DNA of 64,000 bases from UHGV virus genome UHGV-0174779. The stretch is one strand, 5' to 3'. Below the pieces are notes generated by a model. That model had not been told where the DNA came from. It saw only the letters and a list, made by a program, of their open reading frames with translations, and did no database searches. The translations under genes were made by a program, and so were the position numbers. Position 1 is the stretch's first letter; each line of letters opens with the position of its first letter. Shown here piece by piece: positions 2,317 through 47,745 of the stretch. The stretch comes from a virus.

Positions 2317-3636
2317 TTATACTACTTTTGGAGTAGCAGGAATAGAACAAGTAGCTGTAACTGTAGTTTGAGATTTATGTGTTGCCTTGACTGTAACAGT
2401 TTCAGCACCCGGGTCATCTGCAAGAGTGAGACTACCAGAGCTGTCTACTGTACCAGCAGCAGTTGGAGTTACTACATAATTGAAGTTAGTTGCAGCATTA
2501 TTACTCGTAAACATATCAGCAAAAGGTACTACATCACCACCAACTTTAGCCTCTACAGTTTTAGCTGTGATGGTAGCTTTAGGAACTACACCACTGATTG
2601 TCCCTGTTGCAGTAACTGAGGTCTGGGTTTTATGAGTAGCTTTGATAGTAACATTACCAGTAGCGTTAGCTGCTAAAGTGACAAGACCTGTATTTGCATC
2701 AATAGAGGTTGCCATATTAGAAGGGTTGGCTACGAAAGTGTAATTGGAAGCAGAAGAGTTAGTTGCTGTGAATAAGGCAGCAAATGTAACAGTGTCTCCA
2801 CCAATTTTACCAGTTACTGTCTTAGCGGTCAAATCTGCTTTAGGAGTAACGTTGGACAATGTACAAGTTTCTGTTGCATTGGGTTGTGTTTTGTGAACAG
2901 CTTTAACAACAGTGCTTCCTGATGCATTAGCTGAAAGAACTACAGAACCACCAACGAAAGATCCATTAGCTTCAGGATTCACTGTAACTGTATAATCAGC
3001 TGCTGAGGAGTTGACAGTAGTAAACATGACATTGAAAGATACTGAATCACCACCAACAAGAGCAGTAGTTATTGGACCTTTAGTCACAATTCCAGCTTTA
3101 GCAGCAACTCCAGTAAAGGAAGTAGTAGCTGTAACTGAGGTCTGAGTCTTATGTGTAGCTTTAACTGTCACTGTTCCAGATGCATTGTCATCTAAACCAA
3201 ACACACCCGACAGATTAAAAGAACCTGCTGACGGGGGAGTGATTTCAAATTCATAATCAGAGAATGCTGAGTTAGTTGCCGTAAACATTGTGGTGAATGC
3301 TGTAGTGCTGCCACCAATCTTACCAGTAATAGGACCTTTTGATACAATGGTCGCTGGTTCATAGATAGAATTAACAGTAGCCGTTCCTTTCTTGGATGAC
3401 TTCGTTGCCGTAATAGTTGCTGGGGTTTCTTGCGACGCACTCGGTGCAGTATATAGCCCAGAAACAGAAACAGCCCCACCGCCCTCAACGGACCAACTAA
3501 ATCCGGTTGTGCTTGTGGAGCCGTCACTCATTTCTGCTGTAGCTGTAAACTGCTGAGTAGCCCCCGTCGGAAGACTTGCAACCGACGAAGGACTAACAGT
3601 TACGGAATCTACTGTTACGCCGCCGCTACCTTTCCC
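2317..3636 (-). CDS. Ig-like (BIG2-type) domain region, probably made as a C-terminal extension of the major capsid protein by -1 frameshift
   Basis: Four tandem ~90-aa repeats (VTVKATHKTQTSVTAT..., TKGPITxxxGG). The frame stays open upstream of the first ATG (3531) to 3696, overlapping the capsid gene 3' end in the -1 frame; no Shine-Dalgarno before ATG 3531. Confidence 0.55.
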   Translation of the reverse strand, partial: GKGSGGVTVDSVTVSPSSVASLPTGATQQFTATAEMSDGSTSTTGFSWSVEGGGAVSVSGLYTAPSASQETPATITATKSSKKGTATVNSIYEPATIVSKGPITGKIGGSTTAFTTMFTATNSAFSDYEFEITPPSAGSFNLSGVFGLDDNASGTVTVKATHKTQTSVTATTSFTGVAAKAGIVTKGPITTALVGGDSVSFNVMFTTVNSSAADYTVTVNPEANGSFVGGSVVLSANASGSTVVKAVHKTQPNATETCTLSNVTPKADLTAKTVTGKIGGDTVTFAALFTATNSSASNYTFVANPSNMATSIDANTGLVTLAANATGNVTIKATHKTQTSVTATGTISGVVPKATITAKTVEAKVGGDVVPFADMFTSNNAATNFNYVVTPTAAGTVDSSGSLTLADDPGAETVTVKATHKSQTTVTATCSIPATPKVV

Positions 3637-15128: not shown

Positions 15129-16051
15129 GAGCACATTAGCTAAGGGAAACATTCCGAAGCGAAGCGAGACAACGGCTAACAGTTGCATAGCGTGAGTAAA
15201 CATGCTGATAGATTTACCGCTCTTTAACAATTTAAACGTTCTTCTATATCGGTTGAACATGCTTGAAGATAATAACCATCGGAAAGTATGCCAGATAAAA
15301 CGGTGTAAGATTCTCTAAACTATCAGAGGAAACAATCTTGCAATCCCTTACTGGAAACGTCACCACTGACAAACGGATTCACTGAGTGCACGCAGAGACT
15401 TAAGCTAATCGCCCACGGTTAAGGGTAGCGGCGGTCATCGCTAACAAGGCGCTACAGTGAAAGAAGTTAATCAGGGTAGACAAGTCCGACGAATACAAGC
15501 TCAATTGCGAGCGGCGGGGAGCGGTTAAAAAGTGGCAAATTGCTATTTAACAATAAGGCTTAGTGTGAACGTTTACGATGTGAACGGCTTGAGATTCATC
15601 TTATGATGAAAGTACATAGTCGGTTTATGTAGTAAACTTGCCGAAAGATATAAAACGTCGGAACATTAGACGGTCAATGACTCTTTCGCAATAGTATCCC
15701 GTAGTGGGCGATGACTAGCGATTGAGAGTTGATACAAAAGGATAGGCGAGAGCGAAAACAAAGTAGACGATATTGCCGACGGTTACAATAAATGTAACTA
15801 ATTAGAGTCGGACGCACTGCCTTATTGTGATGATTGATCATCGCTATCAGGTCGGCTTAGTTTATAGCGACTAATTAAAGATACCAGATGAAACATCACG
15901 GATAAGGAGGCGGAAAGGTTAACTCCTGATAAGACCGCCTCACTTACCTGTAACTACTTAAAAAGTGAGTGGTTAGAGTTAAGTTAATAGTGACTTAAGC
16001 AAGCTCATAGAGAGCGGGGCATAGTGCCCTTACAATTGAAAGGTGAATATC

Positions 16052-20590: not shown

Positions 20591-20696
20591 CGAGAGCTCT
20601 TAGTGAGGGTGTATCTTCCCCGCCTTCTAAGCGGTCGTTAAAGAAGTAAATGGAGTATGCAGGTTCGAGTCCTGTCACCCTCGCTAAGAGCTCTTG
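20591..20696 (+). other. Long inverted repeat forming a 21-bp stem that encloses a tRNA-like T-arm (candidate RNase III site or structured RNA)
   Basis: cgagagctcttagtgagggtg (20591-20611) pairs with caccctcgctaagagctcttg (20676-20696) with two G-U pairs; enclosed GGTTCGAGTCC matches the tRNA T-loop consensus. Confidence 0.4.
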
Positions 20697-22006: not shown

Positions 22007-22323
22007 AGAGTTACCATGATCAAATCGTGACTATCGTGAAGGATTCTTACGAGAGTCCTTTGAGATAGGACTTCAGATCTCCTATCAAACTAACATTCAC
22101 GTAACTAGCCCATAAGGGGCGTTACCCTTTAATAACCCAGCCCACTAAGGGGGGCGGGAGTTTAGTGCTGGATTAGCATAACGCTTATTCCTACAAAGGC
22201 AACCGATTGTTAGATCTTACATGCAAACTTAATTAATAGGATATGGGAGGATTCGTCCCCTCCCCCTATTTTATTGAATCTTTATCTAAGCAAGTCTTAT
22301 ATAAATGTTTAATAGGAGGTTAT

Positions 22324-27019: not shown

Positions 27020-27637
27020 GTGAGCTTAGTAGCTGATTTTTCTCATTACTATAGTGGCACATGGATTGCTAAACGAGCAGGCAACATCAACCTTCCCTGT
27101 TTTGTGATTGGTGTTGAGCAGAGAGGTAACTTCCGCAGCGACGACTTCTCACATGAAGCAGAACAAGCTCTGTACTTTGTTGTAGAGCAATGGTACAAGA
27201 ATGAGAACGGGATTCTCCGAAACACTACGATGAATATTCCAGTGTTTGACCCAACCTTGATTCTTGAATCACCTGATGTTGGCTATCTGTTCCATAATGG
27301 TAACACTGTAAGCTGGACTCATATCAACCCTGTTCGTCAGAGAGCGAAGGGTTTGGTGGGTAACAAGATTCGAAATGCTCCGGGGGTTGGTCGTTCTATC
27401 TCTGGGGAAATGGTTTACAGTCTATTCAATCCTGAATTTGATGGATTGGTTACTCGTTACATTTACATCAACCCTACAGATGGTAAAGTGCATTATAAAG
27501 GTGCACGGGTAGGTCAGGTAGATCTGGAAGCACCTCGTGACTCTTACGGTCAGCAACCGATGCGACTTCTGGAACATTTTCATCACATCTCTGAAAACCT
27601 TAGCAATTATAATATTACGTTGGTGGATTCGTTATGA
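27020..27637 (+). CDS. Hypothetical protein (member of ligase/amidotransferase block)
   Basis: 205 aa, GTG start, stop overlaps next start. Confidence 0.5.
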   Translation: MSLVADFSHYYSGTWIAKRAGNINLPCFVIGVEQRGNFRSDDFSHEAEQALYFVVEQWYKNENGILRNTTMNIPVFDPTLILESPDVGYLFHNGNTVSWTHINPVRQRAKGLVGNKIRNAPGVGRSISGEMVYSLFNPEFDGLVTRYIYINPTDGKVHYKGARVGQVDLEAPRDSYGQQPMRLLEHFHHISENLSNYNITLVDSL

Positions 27638-28737
27638 CAACTGTAGCGCAAACTTTTGGATATCGAGAAGGTCGTTTAACTGAGGCGCATAGTTCAATTG
27701 CACTTCAGTGCGGTGTCGGTATTGAACTTGAACTCGAAGGTTCTGAACATATCGAAGCAGATATGTGGGATTGCACAGAGGATGGTTCCCTGCGTAACGG
27801 TTGTGAAATGGTATGTTCACGACCTTACAACGGACAGGAGTTGTTAGACGCTATCAACAACCTGAGTGAAGCAGTAGCTGAATCGCACGCCGAGGGGACT
27901 TGGCGTTGCTCTACTCACGTTCATATGGATATGAGGGATGCTGATAGTAATATCCTCAAGAAGACCATTCTAGCTTGGACCTTCTATGAAAAGATGTTGT
28001 TCAAGTGTTCAGGCTACCATCGTTACCGTAGCAACTTCTGCCCTGCTTTCGCAGTGGTACAAGCACAGGTAATGAATGCCTCTGACGCATTTAACTACGA
28101 CGATGAAGAGTTCTTCAACCGTCTGGTTCGTTCATGGGATAAATATACATCTCTGAACCTTCTGCCACTTGCCCAATATGGTTCGATCGAGTTCCGTATC
28201 AGTGAGCCTAAGTGGAAACGTGGTCAACTTCTCAATCTGGTTAACCGCTTCTTAATGTTGAAGAAGCTGGCTTTAGATAACGCAGAGATGAGCAATGATC
28301 AGTTTATCGAGCATTTAAATACTGTACGATTTGCCCCAATGCTTCCTTATCTTCCACTAGATTACAGTCTGGATGAATTGGATTTGCATTCAGGGTATTG
28401 TATGGCCCGTGATGTTTTGTACTGCCGTTCTCATGAAGTAGAGCAGTCTGGTCGTATTCGTTTACGTCGAACCAACCCAAGTGGAGAAGTTCTTGTTGAC
28501 TTACGTCTTATCTCAGACTTCTATGGATACCTTGGATATGTCCGAGGGAATGCTAACAACTTGTACCAAGAGATTTTGGTCATGCTTAATACAACAGATC
28601 TATCTACTGTACGATCTGCACCAGAGCAATGTATCCGTGAGATCTTTGACTTACTTCGTGAGTCAGGCCATATTGATAATAATATCACAGGGTACATTCC
28701 AGATCATCTGGAGTATCAGTTAGAGCAAGCGCTGTAA
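27634..28737 (+). CDS. Amidoligase (glutamine-synthetase-like carboxylate-amine ligase family)
   Basis: 367 aa; GVGIELELEG, EDGSL, CSTHVHMD, FRISEPKWKRG motifs typical of phage-type amidoligases. Confidence 0.6.
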   Translation: MTTVAQTFGYREGRLTEAHSSIALQCGVGIELELEGSEHIEADMWDCTEDGSLRNGCEMVCSRPYNGQELLDAINNLSEAVAESHAEGTWRCSTHVHMDMRDADSNILKKTILAWTFYEKMLFKCSGYHRYRSNFCPAFAVVQAQVMNASDAFNYDDEEFFNRLVRSWDKYTSLNLLPLAQYGSIEFRISEPKWKRGQLLNLVNRFLMLKKLALDNAEMSNDQFIEHLNTVRFAPMLPYLPLDYSLDELDLHSGYCMARDVLYCRSHEVEQSGRIRLRRTNPSGEVLVDLRLISDFYGYLGYVRGNANNLYQEILVMLNTTDLSTVRSAPEQCIREIFDLLRESGHIDNNITGYIPDHLEYQLEQAL

Positions 28738-28816
28738 TCAATGGGTGCCTCTGATAAAGGGGCACAATTTAAAGGTTAATTAGATGAAAGGGTTTACCCT
28801 TCAGGTGGATTAGAAA

Positions 28817-30847
28817 ATTTGCGGCATCGTATTAGCTGGCGGTAATCTGTCAAGCACCGATTTAGACGTATTCAACCAACTCTTTTATGCTGGGGTATTC
28901 CGAGGACAACATTCCTCTGGTATCTTTGGTCAGCGTAAAAGTACTAAGGAAGTCTTCACTTATAAGGAAGCTCTTCCCTCTTTCGCATTCATCCTACAAG
29001 ATGAGTATAAGAAGCACACCACTGGTGAAACATCTTATACTGTAGCACCTTCATGGATTGTTGGTCACAGTCGTCATGCAACGAAAGGTGCAGTTAACGC
29101 CAAGAACGCCCATCCTTTCCAACACGGTAACATCACTCTGGTTCATAACGGAACCTTGATGGACCAAGATCTGTTACCTGACAGTAAAAACTTCGAGGTA
29201 GACAGTGAGAACATCTGCTACTCTATTAACACTATTGGTGCAGCAGAGACTATTCAAAAGCTGGATGGTGCTTTCACCTTAATCTGGCATGATGCTTCTG
29301 ATAACCGTCTTCATATTATTCGTAACGAAGAGCGTCCTTTCCATCTCGCACGTTGTAATAGAGATTGGTTTGGTGCTTCTGAAGAAGATATGCTGATGTG
29401 GATTCTGAAGCGTTCTAAGTCTCACAAAAACCGAATTGATGAGCACTTTGAATGTAAAGTTGGTACAGAATATATCTTTGATATGTCAAACAACAGCATG
29501 ACTCTGGTTGAAGAGGTCGCCCATGAGCTTCCGGTTTTTACGGTAGTCAATCGTTGGGCCAGTTACTACTCGAACAACTACAGCCAAAGCAATTATCAAA
29601 GCTCCTCAAAAAGCAGTACAAGCAATCCTTACGACACGAAGCCGGGAGTGACAGCGGCAGACGTTCGTCGAAGAAACGCAGTGGTAAGTCAAAACAAAAT
29701 CGCAAGCGATCGAAACATTGATATTCGCCGCGACATGACTGTGGAAATCACACCACATGAATTTGTTCCCTATGCAACTGCTGGTGCTGTTCCTTCTCGT
29801 GGTAAGATGATTGGTTATATCTACGATGAGAAATCTCAAGAGTACATTGAAGGTGATGTTCATAACGTAGACATTAAGGCTTATCAGGATGCCCTGAAAG
29901 ACCCTAAAATTGTTTACCGTGGGACAGTATCCTGCATCTCCGAAGTCGATGCTATGGTTCGTTTAGTAATCACAGCAGGTCGTTTTGTTGACCCATCTCT
30001 GGAGAAAAAGGAGCCTGAGTCAACTACTGCTGACTTCGATGATGATATCCCTTTTGACATGAATGATAGTTTCGTCAACAAGAATGGCGTTACTATCACT
30101 CGTAAATTCTGGGAAGCACACTCTCATGGTGATTGTGGTGGTTGTGACAAGCACATTGATTGGAAGGATGCACCTAAAGCAGTCTTCGCATATCAGTGCT
30201 ACTGGCATCCCGAGTGTCTGGAAAGGTTGACTAAACCTAAAGAGGAAGAAGAGGAGGAGACTCCTATCGGTGTTTGTGAAATCTGTGGTGAGGTTAAAAC
30301 AGAGAATGAGTTCGATGAAGAACTTAGCCGCCTCCGTGGTGAAGATATCTGTAAAGACTGTGCTGTAGAAGTAAAGAAGAAAGTGTCTAATGCTACGATC
30401 AAAGATGGTTATGTCTGGATTAAAGCAACAGATACAACAAACACCCGTCGTCCTGAAATTGCTGTACGTGTAACTGAGGAAATGATTGGTCGTATGACCG
30501 TATTACCCTCCTCAGCGAAACAAACAGGTATCACTCTGGAAGATGTTGTTGATGCTTATGTTGAGAAACGTGGCAACAGTATTTTTGCAATCTCGACTAA
30601 GCCAAAAAAGGAGGAACCTGCTGAGAAAGCAGGTGTGTTTCCTGAATCACGAACAGCTCTCCGCAAAACTGTTGTCAGCTTCGACGGAAATCGAAGCACT
30701 GACTTCACCAAAGCCATGTGGTCAACCCTCGGATACTGCTCAGAGTGTTTTAAGCAGATTCCGTGGCGCGATGCTGAAAGTTGTACGCTTGGTTCTATGA
30801 ATCAAGTTTATTGTAATTCTCCTAAATGTTCATTGAATAGAGGTTAA
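28817..30847 (+). CDS. Class-II glutamine amidotransferase (Ntn-hydrolase) fused to Cys-cluster C-terminal domain; probable AUU start
   Basis: ORF track starts at 29156, but the same frame upstream encodes (I)CGIVLAGG...FRGQHSSGIFG...NAHPF...LVHNGTL, the N-terminal Cys and HPF/HNG signature of class-II GATases. No ATG/GTG/TTG precedes the Cys; AGGTGGA lies 8 nt before ATT 28817. C-terminal part has three Cys4-like clusters. Confidence 0.55.
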   Translation: MCGIVLAGGNLSSTDLDVFNQLFYAGVFRGQHSSGIFGQRKSTKEVFTYKEALPSFAFILQDEYKKHTTGETSYTVAPSWIVGHSRHATKGAVNAKNAHPFQHGNITLVHNGTLMDQDLLPDSKNFEVDSENICYSINTIGAAETIQKLDGAFTLIWHDASDNRLHIIRNEERPFHLARCNRDWFGASEEDMLMWILKRSKSHKNRIDEHFECKVGTEYIFDMSNNSMTLVEEVAHELPVFTVVNRWASYYSNNYSQSNYQSSSKSSTSNPYDTKPGVTAADVRRRNAVVSQNKIASDRNIDIRRDMTVEITPHEFVPYATAGAVPSRGKMIGYIYDEKSQEYIEGDVHNVDIKAYQDALKDPKIVYRGTVSCISEVDAMVRLVITAGRFVDPSLEKKEPESTTADFDDDIPFDMNDSFVNKNGVTITRKFWEAHSHGDCGGCDKHIDWKDAPKAVFAYQCYWHPECLERLTKPKEEEEEETPIGVCEICGEVKTENEFDEELSRLRGEDICKDCAVEVKKKVSNATIKDGYVWIKATDTTNTRRPEIAVRVTEEMIGRMTVLPSSAKQTGITLEDVVDAYVEKRGNSIFAISTKPKKEEPAEKAGVFPESRTALRKTVVSFDGNRSTDFTKAMWSTLGYCSECFKQIPWRDAESCTLGSMNQVYCNSPKCSLNRG

Positions 30848-31293: not shown

Positions 31294-32490
31294 ATGACTA
31301 CTCGTATCCGTGTTCTCCCTTATGGCCCTTCTGATTCAGTTCGTGAACTTACTTCTGCTATTAATGCTAAGATTCAGGAACTTCGACTGAATGCTAACGT
31401 AATGTCTCTGGTATCAGAAAACTCTCGTTATCGTTCTCGAGCCGGTGATATTGTTGTAAACTATGGCAACCGTCGTTATGATGCTTCTTTCTTTGGTGGT
31501 GCAACCGTACTGAACCCTGTTGAAGCCCTGAACCGAGCAGCTAATAAAGTTGCAGCATTTAACGCATTACGGTTGGCTGGAGTTAAGACTGTTGAATATA
31601 CCGTTGATCGTGAAGTAGCTCAGAGCTGGAACCAAAACGAAATCGTTTATGAGCGTGCAACCTTAACTGGACATTCTGGTGAAGGCATCACCGTACGTCT
31701 TCCGGGAGAAGGTACTGCAAGTGCTCCTCTGTATACGAAAGGTATTCAAGGTCCGCGTCGTGAATGGCGTGTTCATGTGTTCGAAGGTGTTATCACTTAC
31801 GTTCAGAAGAAGATTCGTCGTAATGGATATCGTGAACTGGAAAGCTATCGTGAAAATATTCGCAACCATCACACTGGCTGGGTTTACTCTAACTCTTTCA
31901 CTGAAGCTCCTCCTGATCAAGTTCTGATTCAAGCCCACAAAGCTGTGTCTGCTCTGGGTTTAAACTTCGGCGCTGTTGACCTGATTAGTAAAGGCTCTAA
32001 CGCTTGGGTTCTGGAAGTAAACACTGCTCCGGGTCTGACTGGTACAACTCTGGAAACTTACACTCACAACATTGTTGAGTTTGTTAAGAGCTTCTCTGGT
32101 GTTGAGCCTGACTACCGCGTTGCTTACGAACTGCCTGTTGAAGAGTCGGAAGTTGAGTTTGCTGACTCAGCGGATGATGAGAACTTTGCATTGACAGCTG
32201 AGCCAGTTGCTGAAGAGTCATCTGAACCTGTTCCTGAAACAATGCAAGTGGAAGAACAAGGGTTAGAGATCAACCCAATCACCCGTCGTACCCTGCGTCG
32301 TGGTTATTATATCGCGAACATCAAGCATCCTGAAAACGGCTCAACTGTAGCAAGTAATGTAATTGTTTTCTTCTGCGGTCGTAACTTCTACCGCTCTGGT
32401 TGGAACGCACCAATTAGTGATCGTCAGCTTGGTCGTGTGTTGCAGATTAATAGCCTTACCCTGAATGATGGCACTGTTGTAAACTACTAA
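31294..32490 (+). CDS. ATP-grasp family ligase (RimK-like)
   Basis: 398 aa; EWRVHVFEG, GWVYSNS, LGLNFGAVDLISKGSNAWVLEVNTAPGL are characteristic ATP-grasp C-terminal motifs. Confidence 0.75.
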   Translation: MTTRIRVLPYGPSDSVRELTSAINAKIQELRLNANVMSLVSENSRYRSRAGDIVVNYGNRRYDASFFGGATVLNPVEALNRAANKVAAFNALRLAGVKTVEYTVDREVAQSWNQNEIVYERATLTGHSGEGITVRLPGEGTASAPLYTKGIQGPRREWRVHVFEGVITYVQKKIRRNGYRELESYRENIRNHHTGWVYSNSFTEAPPDQVLIQAHKAVSALGLNFGAVDLISKGSNAWVLEVNTAPGLTGTTLETYTHNIVEFVKSFSGVEPDYRVAYELPVEESEVEFADSADDENFALTAEPVAEESSEPVPETMQVEEQGLEINPITRRTLRRGYYIANIKHPENGSTVASNVIVFFCGRNFYRSGWNAPISDRQLGRVLQINSLTLNDGTVVNY

Positions 32491-41975: not shown

Positions 41976-42304
41976 TGATTGACAGTAATACATTTAAGAC
42001 TTCAAATGGAAGTGAGATAAGTCCCGCTGAAGTAATCAATCGGCACAGAAGGCAATTGATCATCCATTCCTATTTGTATTACTGGTTGGATGACCCTATC
42101 TGGTCTGATGATAAATGGCAACAAGTTGCTAATGATTTGGTTGAGTTGCAAGCTTTGTATCCAGATCCTACCGGAGTCTTTGACAATGAGTTCAGGGATT
42201 GGGATGGTTCTACAGGGATGCACCTCCCACATAATGAGGCTGTTGCTTGTATGGCTACAGCTGTTTACAGGATTCATAAAGATATGAACCATGAAGTGCT
42301 CTAA
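41975..42304 (+). CDS. Hypothetical protein
   Basis: 109 aa ORF. Confidence 0.45.
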   Translation: MIDSNTFKTSNGSEISPAEVINRHRRQLIIHSYLYYWLDDPIWSDDKWQQVANDLVELQALYPDPTGVFDNEFRDWDGSTGMHLPHNEAVACMATAVYRIHKDMNHEVL

Positions 42305-42476
42305 ATGCGAAGGAACAAACCTTCATTTAAGTAACAAGGTTATCAGAGAGCTTGCCAAAGGCTCTCCAACCAAAGGGAAGAACAAACGATTTACTAACGT
42401 CAGGGTTTATACAGCAATCTGTAAAGACTGTTTAACCACTGAGTGTCATTACGAAGAAATTGGAGAGCGTAAATGA
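42291..42476 (+). CDS. Small zinc-ribbon protein
   Basis: 61 aa; CSKCEG...CKDC. Confidence 0.4.
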   Translation: MKCSKCEGTNLHLSNKVIRELAKGSPTKGKNKRFTNVRVYTAICKDCLTTECHYEEIGERK

Positions 42477-43210
42477 GTCGTCGTCAATCACGGAAAGAAT
42501 CACGGAAAGATCTTCGTCGGGAAGCACTTGTTACTCGTAAGGGTAAGCGAGAGTATGAAGAGGTGGTTTTAGCAAAGCCTGTAGTCCCTCAGAACCAGTT
42601 TCAGTCTGAGCTACTCAATGCTATTAAGACTAAACAAGTTGTGTTCACAGACGCTCCTGCGGGCTGTGGTAAGACCTTTGTAATCACTTCCACGGTTATT
42701 GATGCACTGAAGAGTGGTAAGATTCAGAAGATCATCCTAAGTCGACCTTCAGTTGGCATGGGTAACTCTCTTGGGTTACTTCCTGGAGGGATGCGTGAGA
42801 AGTTTGAACCGTACCTGATGCCTATTATTGATGTTATTACTCAGCGATATGGTAAGGGATTCTATGAATGCCAAATCGGAAATGGTAACATTGAATTTGT
42901 ACCTCTGGAATATCTCCGTGGTCGTTCTTTCAATGATGCTATTGTTATCGTAGACGAGTTCCAGAACACAACTAAGGATGAAGCCTTCTCCATCATGACT
43001 CGATTGGGAGAAACCTCTCAACTGTTCTGCATGGGTGATACAAACCAGCATGATATGCGTGGTCGTGAGAGTGGCCTAACTTGGGCTACTAATTTTATTG
43101 ATGAACACGATCTGTATGAGTATGCTGAGATTGTAGATGGTGAATCGGATGACATTGTTCGTTCTGGTTTCTGTAAGGCGATTGTTAAAGCAATGGAAAA
43201 GAAAGCTTAA
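42473..43210 (+). CDS. phoH: PhoH-like ATPase
   Basis: 245 aa; Walker A APAGCGKTF, ILSRPSVGMGNSLGLLPG, Walker B IVIVDEFQN, MGDTNQHD. Confidence 0.8.
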   Translation: MSRRQSRKESRKDLRREALVTRKGKREYEEVVLAKPVVPQNQFQSELLNAIKTKQVVFTDAPAGCGKTFVITSTVIDALKSGKIQKIILSRPSVGMGNSLGLLPGGMREKFEPYLMPIIDVITQRYGKGFYECQIGNGNIEFVPLEYLRGRSFNDAIVIVDEFQNTTKDEAFSIMTRLGETSQLFCMGDTNQHDMRGRESGLTWATNFIDEHDLYEYAEIVDGESDDIVRSGFCKAIVKAMEKKA

Positions 43211-43266: not shown

Positions 43267-43584
43267 ATGGCAGACCATGTAGGAAAGAGAGATTATGCAC
43301 AAGAAAGACGTACCGCAATTGCCCGTGGTGAAACAGGCGTTGGGAGCAAGAGCGGAGATGCTCAGCGCCACCGTGCACGTCGCATCGTTGAAAAGCGCGA
43401 TGGAAAAGCTGCTGTCAGAGGTAAAGACGTTGGACACAAACGAGCTGTCAAGTCTGGAGGCTCTAATGCGTCAAGCAACTTACGTGTTGAATCAGTCAGC
43501 TCAAACCGTTCAAACGGCGGCAAAAGTGGTGATCGAGCTGGAAAAGCAGCTGGATCTCGCAAAGGAGCTTTAAGCTCATCATAA
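43267..43584 (+). CDS. Hypothetical basic protein
   Basis: 105 aa with AAGGAG RBS 7 nt upstream; a 92-aa ORF in another frame (43295-43573) overlaps it completely. Confidence 0.4.
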   Translation: MADHVGKRDYAQERRTAIARGETGVGSKSGDAQRHRARRIVEKRDGKAAVRGKDVGHKRAVKSGGSNASSNLRVESVSSNRSNGGKSGDRAGKAAGSRKGALSSS

Positions 43585-47339: not shown

Positions 47340-47745
47340 TAAGTAATGGGTGTTTATGAGAAGTTTCTTGTTTTTGTATCAATTTGTTTAGTGTTAGATG
47401 TAATAATTATCTATTCTTTTAAATAGAGAATCAAAGTCCCTAGGAGTCCCTACAACCTAAATCAAGGATTCCTTAATTCTCTATTTTTATCACGCAGGTG
47501 GCTCCTGCCCTTCCGGTAGTCTCTCAATTTCTTACAAACTTATGAGAGATTGTCGTCTGCGCCTTATCGTCGTCAGTCCCGTGCAATAACTTTATCAGCT
47601 ATACAATATATACATTACTGGTATGTTATATCTACTACCAAAGATACTTATACTATATAGTACTCTTATCGGTATAAGCGTAATGTATACTATACATAAC
47701 CGCTCAAAGAGAGCAACAATCTTTCAAACTAAATAAGGAAATTTA
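47340..47745 (+). repeat. AT-rich structured non-coding region with inverted and TATAC-type repeats (candidate origin or middle promoter region)
   Basis: aatagagaat ... attctctatt inverted repeat enclosing gtccctaggagtccct, then tatacaatatatac / tatactatatag / taatgtatactatac repeats, immediately upstream of the SSB gene. Confidence 0.35.

Follow-up and report, generated by a model that had tools for sequence, protein, structure and literature searches.

How is a class-II glutamine amidotransferase (GATase) translated when the codon for its catalytic cysteine stands just behind an in-frame stop and no canonical start codon lies between the two? The question is raised by one gene of UHGV virus genome UHGV-0174779, analyzed here as a single 64,000-nucleotide (nt) stretch (“the window”), which BLAST identified as a Kuravirus (phiEco32-like) coliphage. 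An initial annotation had reported that no ATG, GTG, or TTG separates the TAG at 28811-28813 from the Cys codon at 28820-28822, which direct reading and a listing of open reading frames (ORFs) bear out, and that a 9-codon mini-ORF runs from ATG 28784 to TAG 28811 in the frame of the enzyme, on which direct reading and translation agree. The frame reads ATG(28784-86) AAA GGG TTT ACC CTT CAG GTG GAT TAG(28811-13) AAA ATT(28817-19) TGC(28820-22) GGC ATC GTA TTA GCT GGC GGT. Its translation across the junction is MKGFTLQVD, a stop, and then K I CGIVLAGG, with two codons (AAA ATT) setting the mini-ORF and the Cys codon apart. Three mechanisms had been offered for this arrangement: initiation at AUU, reinitiation after termination, and stop-codon readthrough with autoprocessing. 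Comparison of sequences leads us to conclude that ATT 28817-28819 is very probably the translation start of the amidotransferase; reinitiation is possible and not required, whereas readthrough finds no support.

Judged by its motifs and profile matches, the gene product is a class-II (N-terminal nucleophile, Ntn) GATase domain followed by a C-terminal Cys-rich region. The class-II signature that had been placed at the Cys is corroborated by a match of the N-terminal domain to Pfam GATase_6, which scores 54.1 bits where the cut-off is 27. Searching with a profile built from the phage family yields matches to GlmS (1xff, E = 2.6e-6), PurF, and AsnB in their glutaminase domains; the phage protein shares the N-terminal M-C-G-I-V with these enzymes, and its H-x-R-x-A-T, V-H-N-G, and D-S/T-E motifs line up with theirs. 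Ten phage sequences agree throughout at the conserved Arg, HNG, and Asp-site residues, the N-terminal CG(I/L)V does not vary within the family, and the Cys of the window falls on position 2 of the PHROG 4736 profile. Unlike GlmS, PurF, and AsnB, the phage protein has no sugar-isomerase, phosphoribosyltransferase, or synthetase domain, and its C-terminal two thirds are phage specific and carry CxxC pairs. Because a GlmS-type isomerase domain is lacking, the label “L-glutamine-D-fructose-6-phosphate aminotransferase” that many records carry is unfounded.

In many GenBank and RefSeq records the gene is annotated instead from TTG 29156, the first in-frame ATG, GTG, or TTG after the TAG in the ORF listing, which gives a 563-amino-acid (aa) product. 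If that were the true product, the N-terminal segment ahead of it would be a decayed remnant or a sequencing artefact. Proteomics of phage SU10 lists a protein of 63.8 kDa, as a 563-aa product would lead one to expect, but this value is the database mass. Against this, over the 112 codons from the Cys up to the TTG (28820-29155), differences from phage SU7 fall 21/13/64 by codon position, a strong third-position bias, with 44 synonymous and 25 nonsynonymous codon changes; three further genus-level comparisons give similar figures, and no stop occurs in any relative. By this pattern of substitution, the 112 codons evolve as coding sequence. Moreover, an enzyme begun at TTG 29156 would be dead, since the parts that the domain needs (catalytic Cys, conserved Arg, and HNG oxyanion motif) all lie upstream. 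The identical sequence recurs in about 100 independent genomes, which also removes the suggestion of the initial annotation that resequencing may reveal an error. We therefore consider a start at TTG 29156 barely credible.

Orthologues place a canonical initiator exactly where the window has ATT. In Proteus phage Privateer, Cronobacter phage A24, Aeromonas phage LAh_9, and Salmonella phages PKM.Hi.22.6 and SeKF_80, the homologous codons are ATG-TGT; they are GTG-TGT in Aeromonas phage APT65 and TTG-TGT in a bacterial-assembly fragment (L142). Dozens of metagenomic relatives likewise carry a canonical start at the exact position of the ATT, followed by CG(I/L)V. Given these starts and the alignment of the Cys to position 2 of PHROG 4736, the ATT sits at the initiator position. 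It is preceded by a Shine-Dalgarno (SD) sequence, AGGTGGA; the motif is as the initial annotation described it, although it occupies 28803-28809 with a 7-nt spacer to the ATT rather than 28802-28808 with 8 nt. Both the ATT and the SD are identical in all sampled relatives among the roughly 100 GenBank records, which span three genera. In line with this assignment, the coding sequence begins at the same ATT in the records of phiEco32 (EU330206, 2008, phi32_83), Bas92, and Bas89 (BASEL), and the length of the gene in the window, 2031 nt, is that of phi32_83. Initiation at AUU, previously put forward as plausible, is thus singled out by the orthologue starts, by coding selection downstream, and by an SD 7 nt upstream.

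The ATT is not peculiar to the coliphages. Relatives of the N-terminal domain were collected from IMG/VR and metagenome contigs, the codon preceding the Cys was noted in each, and the sequences were grouped at 90% protein identity. The 66 resulting clusters comprise 44 with ATG, 11 with ATT, 1 with ATC, 1 with both ATT and ATC, 5 with TTG, 3 with GTG, and 1 other, so that ATT or ATC is found in about 20% of lineages (13/66 clusters). Ten of the lineages (L048, L050, L059, L060, L092, L099, L110, L111, L118, and L125) have ATT or ATC with a good SD and no in-frame canonical start. In a rough tree, non-canonical starts are interspersed among ATG lineages, and switches occur even within clusters of at least 70% identity: L048 has ATC and L099 ATT where L101 has ATG; L060, L111, L118, and L121 have ATT where L056 and L107 have ATG; and L092 has ATT where L082 has ATG. 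The sequences upstream of the gene in L048 and L099 are nearly identical. The SD of ATT/ATC lineages is usually strong (GGAGGA or AAGGAG), and median duplex energies are -9.35 kcal/mol in ATT lineages and -8.15 in ATC lineages, compared with -6.2 where the start is ATG (one-sided Mann-Whitney p = 0.019, not corrected for phylogeny). These comparisons support the view that AUU and AUC are genuine starts in the family, repeatedly selected or tolerated, and the most economical reason for their recurrence would be selection for low glutaminase output. Two out-of-frame codons that overlap the ATT-Cys junction, UUG 28819-28821 and GUG 28821-28823, were considered as starts and rejected: the frame of the UUG stops after 8 codons, and this UUG is missing in ATC lineages. 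The N-terminus itself varies in one lineage (L047/L088), which reads ATG-TGC-TGT-GGA, or M-C-C-G-I-V, with two Cys before the conserved Gly; if the second Cys is the nucleophile, the extra residue must go, and otherwise the N-terminal register is shifted.

The same lineages bear on readthrough. On this account, translation would start at ATG 28784, pass the UAG at 28811, and yield a 12-residue propeptide, whose autocatalytic removal would expose the Cys. Some Ntn amidotransferases do undergo propeptide processing, with the propeptide of Bacillus subtilis PurF as a model, and mini-ORF and enzyme do share one frame. Against it, orthologues open directly with M-C, and the other ATT/ATC lineages have an in-frame stop 1 to 19 codons upstream and no in-frame start; in L059, TAA directly precedes the ATT. 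The SD of the mini-ORF is weak. Furthermore, no suppressor tRNA was found: ARAGORN calls no tRNA in the window, a tRNA-like element at 20605-20683 has the anticodon UCU, and SU7 encodes a tRNA-Arg only. Readthrough is so improbable that we set it aside, and with it the third of the mechanisms first offered.

Initiation at AUU would proceed as follows. The ribosome would be positioned by AGGUGGA 7 nt upstream, and initiator fMet-tRNA would pair with AUU in spite of the third-position mismatch. Deformylase and then methionine aminopeptidase would strip the Met, leaving Cys as residue 1, as the enzyme class requires, and the mature N-terminal peptide expected after this removal is CGIVLAGGNLSSTDLDVFNQLFYAGVFR. 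As a weak start discriminated against by initiation factor 3 (IF3), AUU would keep expression low or conditional, and a 52-nt leader that ends within the Cys codon most likely tunes it (Table 1). AUU starts are rare among cellular genes: in all E. coli only two are confirmed, those of infC and pcnB, and one reporter study put AUU initiation at about 1-2% of the AUG level, while another found it 6-8 times lower than with AUG. Several points weigh against simple initiation at AUU as a full account of the locus. The SD is only moderate, with a duplex energy of -7.2 kcal/mol against the 16S 3' tail, and together with AUU it predicts very low de novo initiation; reinitiation or a similar route might carry most of the flux. 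An SD and a start codon alone do not account for the total invariance of the leader, and leader folding is at the level of shuffled sequence. That the protein is made is shown by shotgun proteomics of SU10, which detected the amidotransferase with 9 peptides; the search used the truncated database entry and is uninformative on the N-terminus.

Table 1. Features of the amidotransferase locus and neighboring genes (positions in the window)
Feature	Position	Strand	Remark
COOH-NH2 ligase	26204-27010		gene order 5' of amidotransferase
Conserved gene, no function given	27020-27637		between COOH-NH2 ligase and amidoligase
Amidoligase	27634-28737		stop codon 28735-37; directly 5' of amidotransferase region
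Hairpin GUGCCUCU-GAUAA-AGGGGCAC	28745..28765	+	shortly 3' of amidoligase stop 28735-37
Invariant 52-nt leader	28770..28821	+	contains mini-ORF, small hairpin, SD, stop, ATT
Weak SD-like AAAGG	28771..28775	+	8 nt 5' of mini-ORF ATG
Mini-ORF ATG...TAG, MKGFTLQVD and stop	28784..28813	+	9 sense codons, frame shared with enzyme
Small hairpin UG(A)AAGGG-UUUA-CCCUUCA	28785..28803	+	within mini-ORF, adjoins SD
Shine-Dalgarno AGGTGGA of enzyme gene	28803..28809	+	7-nt spacer to ATT
TAG stop of mini-ORF	28811..28813	+	enzyme frame, 3 nt 5' of start codon
ATT, probable initiation codon of amidotransferase gene	28817..28819	+	assigned by orthologue comparison
Catalytic N-terminal Cys codon TGC	28820..28822	+	predicted residue 1 once initiator Met is removed
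Full-length amidotransferase gene	28817..30847	+	676 codons plus stop (30845-47)
TTG, false start in many deposited annotations	29156..29158	+	563-aa product, ORF 29156..30847
Two small ORFs			between amidotransferase and ATP-grasp enzyme
ATP-grasp enzyme	31294-32490

We then asked how strongly the leader is conserved. When representatives of Kuravirus, Suseptimavirus, and Nieuwekanaalvirus are aligned, the stretch 28770-28821 shows no difference at any base, while the flanks are at 77-79% identity. Across a 5.3-kb alignment of the locus, the 50-nt segment 28775-28824 is 0.98 invariant, against 0.26-0.92 for other segments of that length. The exact run shared with SU7 extends over 55 nt (28767-28821) and ranks 11th of 119 runs of at least 25 nt in 46 kb aligned at 78% identity. 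Sampled records among the roughly 100 relatives each differ by 1 base from a 60-mer of the window. In every relative aligned this base is the synonymous TGC/TGT change of the Cys codon, the sole difference between window and relatives over 28770-28825, and synonymous sites next to the leader have diverged by more than 50%. The leader is thus under very strong sequence constraint. As for the Cys codon itself, TGC is found in the window only, and all relatives sampled have TGT.

A second version of the leader occurs in Aeromonas phage BUCT695 (Grimontviridae), which retains the leader, mini-ORF, hairpin, stop, and ATT. Its leader is 87-90% identical to that of the window (87% over 79 nt), whereas the best coding segments reach 64-79%; its amidotransferase domain has 54% protein identity to that of the window and groups with that of A24, which starts with ATG. 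Two substitutions set the BUCT695 leader apart: the hairpin loop reads UUAA instead of UUUA, and the SD reads GGCGGA instead of GGUGGA, the latter changing the duplex energy of AGGCGGA with the 16S 3' tail to -5.8 kcal/mol; both alter the mini-ORF peptide (F to L and V to A). Conversely, L026-28 and L067, which in protein sequence come nearest to the coliphage group (60-66% identity), start with ATG and lack a leader of this kind. Since BUCT695 keeps both elements and these relatives have neither, ATT and leader travel as one module, which either is ancestral with losses or has moved by recombination. Genes for HNH endonucleases lie close by in several phages, and they could explain lateral movement of the module. 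In BUCT695 (L015), a decayed HNH homing-endonuclease gene lies at 2806-3000, between the amidoligase gene and the leader; it reads MDKVLKKITHQGDCWLWTGCINSDGYPKE up to a stop, after which a helix-turn-helix-like tail continues out of frame. The HNH gene located at this junction in Pseudomonas phage UFV-P2 is intact, and in SU7 and Bas89 HNH genes flank the cluster.

What could hold a leader of this kind invariant? One answer is that AUU is the start codon and that most initiation there comes from reinitiation after translation of the mini-ORF, with termination at UAG 28811-28813 and restart 3 nt on. The SD inside the mini-ORF would assist, and passage of ribosomes would melt the small hairpin too, making the leader a natural “bicistronic coupler”. 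The geometry UAG AAA AUU equals that of UAA GGU AUU at thrS-infC, the start, stop, and frame of the mini-ORF are kept in all of the roughly 100 coliphage relatives and in BUCT695, and the SD of the enzyme (28803-28809) is located within the mini-ORF. Among other ATT lineages, L050 also has a mini-ORF, of 5 codons, that ends 4 nt before the ATT. This mini-ORF (L050 1440-1500; ATG TCG TCT AGG AGA TGA) holds the SD, and its AUG lies within a hairpin, ACGACA-AAA-UGUCGU; the layout recalls the coliphage leader, while the sequence is unrelated. Other observations speak against reinitiation as the main route. The SD-like AAAGG of the mini-ORF forms a duplex of -3.8 kcal/mol with the 16S tail and is gone in BUCT695, where AAATG gives +0.8; the mini-ORF AUG is partly within the stem of the small hairpin; and most other ATT/ATC lineages have no mini-ORF. 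TAGATGAAAGG is also present in A24, where AAAGGA is the SD of the ATG start, so that the AUG of the mini-ORF may be a relic. Both BUCT695 substitutions within the mini-ORF are nonsynonymous. We regard reinitiation as the principal route as possible, though on balance unlikely.

Another answer is that the invariant leader is an operator, at which a phage or host factor gates access to the weak AUU. Such a factor might repress or activate translation through the hairpin and SD, or it might be a DNA-binding protein that recognizes the palindrome AAGGGTT(T/A)ACCCTT. An operator would fit the invariance of all 52 nt beside synonymous sites that have diverged so far, as well as the greater conservation of the BUCT695 leader (87%) than of the catalytic core (64-79%). 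The loop of the hairpin differs in BUCT695 but its stem does not, and the palindrome there is a perfect one of 14 bp. RNA stability, by comparison, does not explain the conservation: folding of the leader does not surpass that of shuffled sequence (z ~0), and the small hairpin is weak. It lies in a 31-nt segment (28780-28810) that folds at -6.5 kcal/mol, again no better than shuffles. A stable riboswitch-like fold of the leader is unsupported. Nor does the leader match an Rfam family, since a permissive scan of it with Rfam 15 gave chance matches only (E at least 0.39, far below gathering scores), and at gathering thresholds the whole window has one marginal tRNA-like match, elsewhere (20605-20683). 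On the other side, no candidate binding factor has been identified, no second copy of the leader motif exists in the 64-kb window, and a single divergent copy is too few to reveal covariation. In addition, the overlapping constraints of SD, stop, start, hairpin, and mini-ORF could explain part of the invariance. An operator therefore appears rather doubtful to us. Neither coupling nor an operator displaces AUU as the start codon.

Further searches for signals or copies of the leader were negative. A sigma-70 scan found no plus-strand promoter in the leader, and the consensus of phiEco32 gp36 promoters, tAATGTAtA (PMC8948821), is absent from it. The leader has no similar counterpart among 5,426 E. 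coli genomes; pattern scans of IMG/VR, a metagenome scan, and BLAST with the BUCT695 version, all aimed at more divergent copies, returned the same two versions only, and a scan of genome contigs gave three fragments only. On the minus strand, a near-consensus sigma-70 promoter (TTGACA-16-TACGAT, 28853..28826) would fire antisense into the leader. It was rejected as a candidate, as other genera do not conserve its -35 element and as many hits are expected from shuffled sequence. Another candidate that we rejected was the Cys-rich C-terminus as a leader-specific RNA-binding domain, since ATG lineages carry a Cys-rich C-terminus too. Protein residues ~439-675 (30134-30844) contain the CxxC motifs CGGC, CEIC, CKDC, and CSEC, typical of zinc ribbons, along with an acidic poly-Glu linker; relatives have 4-6 CxxC motifs regardless of start codon.

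The only significantly stable fold in the region precedes the leader. The hairpin at 28745-28765 has an energy of -13.9 kcal/mol (z = -5.1); its loop varies among relatives, and its stem shows compensatory changes in SU7 (GCGCUCU...AGGGCGC). Similar hairpins also lie upstream of the gene in distant orthologues, and the record of one relative has a “terminator” annotated beneath an 801-base match that covers the site. By its appearance the element looks like a terminator or an RNA-stabilizing hairpin, with no U-run 3' of the stem.

The closest known parallel to the layout of the leader is infC of E. coli, at its junction with thrS. In both, an AUU start is preceded by an upstream SD and by a stop exactly 3 nt before the AUU. 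The infC AUU is weak and IF3 sensitive (PMC3592434), and translation of the upstream frame at thrS-infC roughly doubles AUU initiation, which still stays 4 times below AUG (PMC3592434). The two loci differ in that a complete gene, thrS, stands upstream of infC and a 9-codon mini-ORF, putatively translated, upstream of the phage AUU, and in that the infC AUU serves autoregulation of IF3, whereas the phage product is a metabolic enzyme. The phage gene also shares a rare ATT start with pcnB of E. coli and ebpA of Enterococcus faecalis, both of which are translationally limited by it. These two genes were once misannotated at a downstream canonical codon and later corrected by experiment, and the phage gene has been misannotated in the same manner. 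They are, however, single cellular genes, while in the phages ATT or ATC recurs across one gene family, and the coliphage ATT is accompanied by the invariant 52-nt leader. A third parallel is synthetic. In bicistronic designs, a short leader cistron carries the SD of the downstream gene; the phage leader resembles these designs and stop-start coupling in layout only, with a short upstream cistron that holds the SD and ends beside the downstream start, and it differs in that its upstream SD is weak.

We tentatively propose that the leader is a dedicated translational control device that licenses the weak AUU, acting as a mini-cistron coupler, an operator, or both. Output would be tied to the state of IF3 or to the stage of infection, and the recurrent AUU and AUC starts would reflect selection for gated, very low expression. 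We offer this as a conjecture that is on balance unlikely. If true, the phage enzymes would be a second family after infC in which the non-canonical start is itself a selected trait. Known bacterial genes with AUU starts number a handful, and a phage family in which about one fifth of lineages use AUU or AUC, with switches between close relatives, is a natural test bed for the causes of selection for weak start codons. The coliphage leader, more conserved than the catalytic core and arranged like infC, is a compact candidate for a regulatory element of early phage expression.

The start has largely escaped public annotation. Among the 39 annotated relatives sampled with a 60-nt query across the start, 34 leave it without a feature. 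The misannotated enzyme is usually 10-113 residues short and has lost its catalytic Cys, and some records leave a gap of about 420 nt. The records of Paul and NJ01 begin at the TTG (563 aa), dropping the Cys and 112 further residues, while those of SU7, EP335, KBNP1711, and BUCT695 begin at least 10 codons late. A misannotated start or a gap at the equivalent of 28817-29155 was also noted for L001, L002, L005, L007, L008, and L015. Strictly speaking, the ATT start is no discovery, as it is already annotated in the type phage phiEco32. No paper commenting on this start codon was found in the literature searched, which did not include the 2008 phiEco32 paper; the scale of misannotation, the invariant infC-like leader, and the recurring AUU/AUC starts in the family likewise go unmentioned in that literature. 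Gene callers limited to ATG, GTG, and TTG will repeat the truncation across the whole family.

The segment 28600-29400 matched 97 phage records by BLAST, nearly all from phiEco32-group (Gordonclarkvirinae) phages of Escherichia or Shigella; Kuravirus records are 93-96% identical to the segment, and those of Suseptimavirus and Nieuwekanaalvirus are 77-79% identical. In phiEco32-type phages the block that holds the amidotransferase consists of early genes, and SU10 proteomics placed the enzyme among the early gene products. Elsewhere in the window, several stretches are identical to SU7 over 57-156 nt (15396-15489, 42038-42693, 43340-43416, 47412-47470, and 22032-22088) at an overall identity of 78%. 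Some exceed the amidotransferase leader in length, and several group at 42-43.4 kb, where recent exchange or further elements under strong constraint may be the reason. The tRNA-like element at 20605-20683 (plus strand) scores 30.2 bits against an Rfam threshold of 29 and is not called by ARAGORN. Its anticodon loop is CUUCUAA (UCU, Arg), its D-arm is nearly missing, and its variable region carries an insert of about 20 nt; the tRNA-Arg of SU7 is normal, and its T-arm resembles that of the element in the window.

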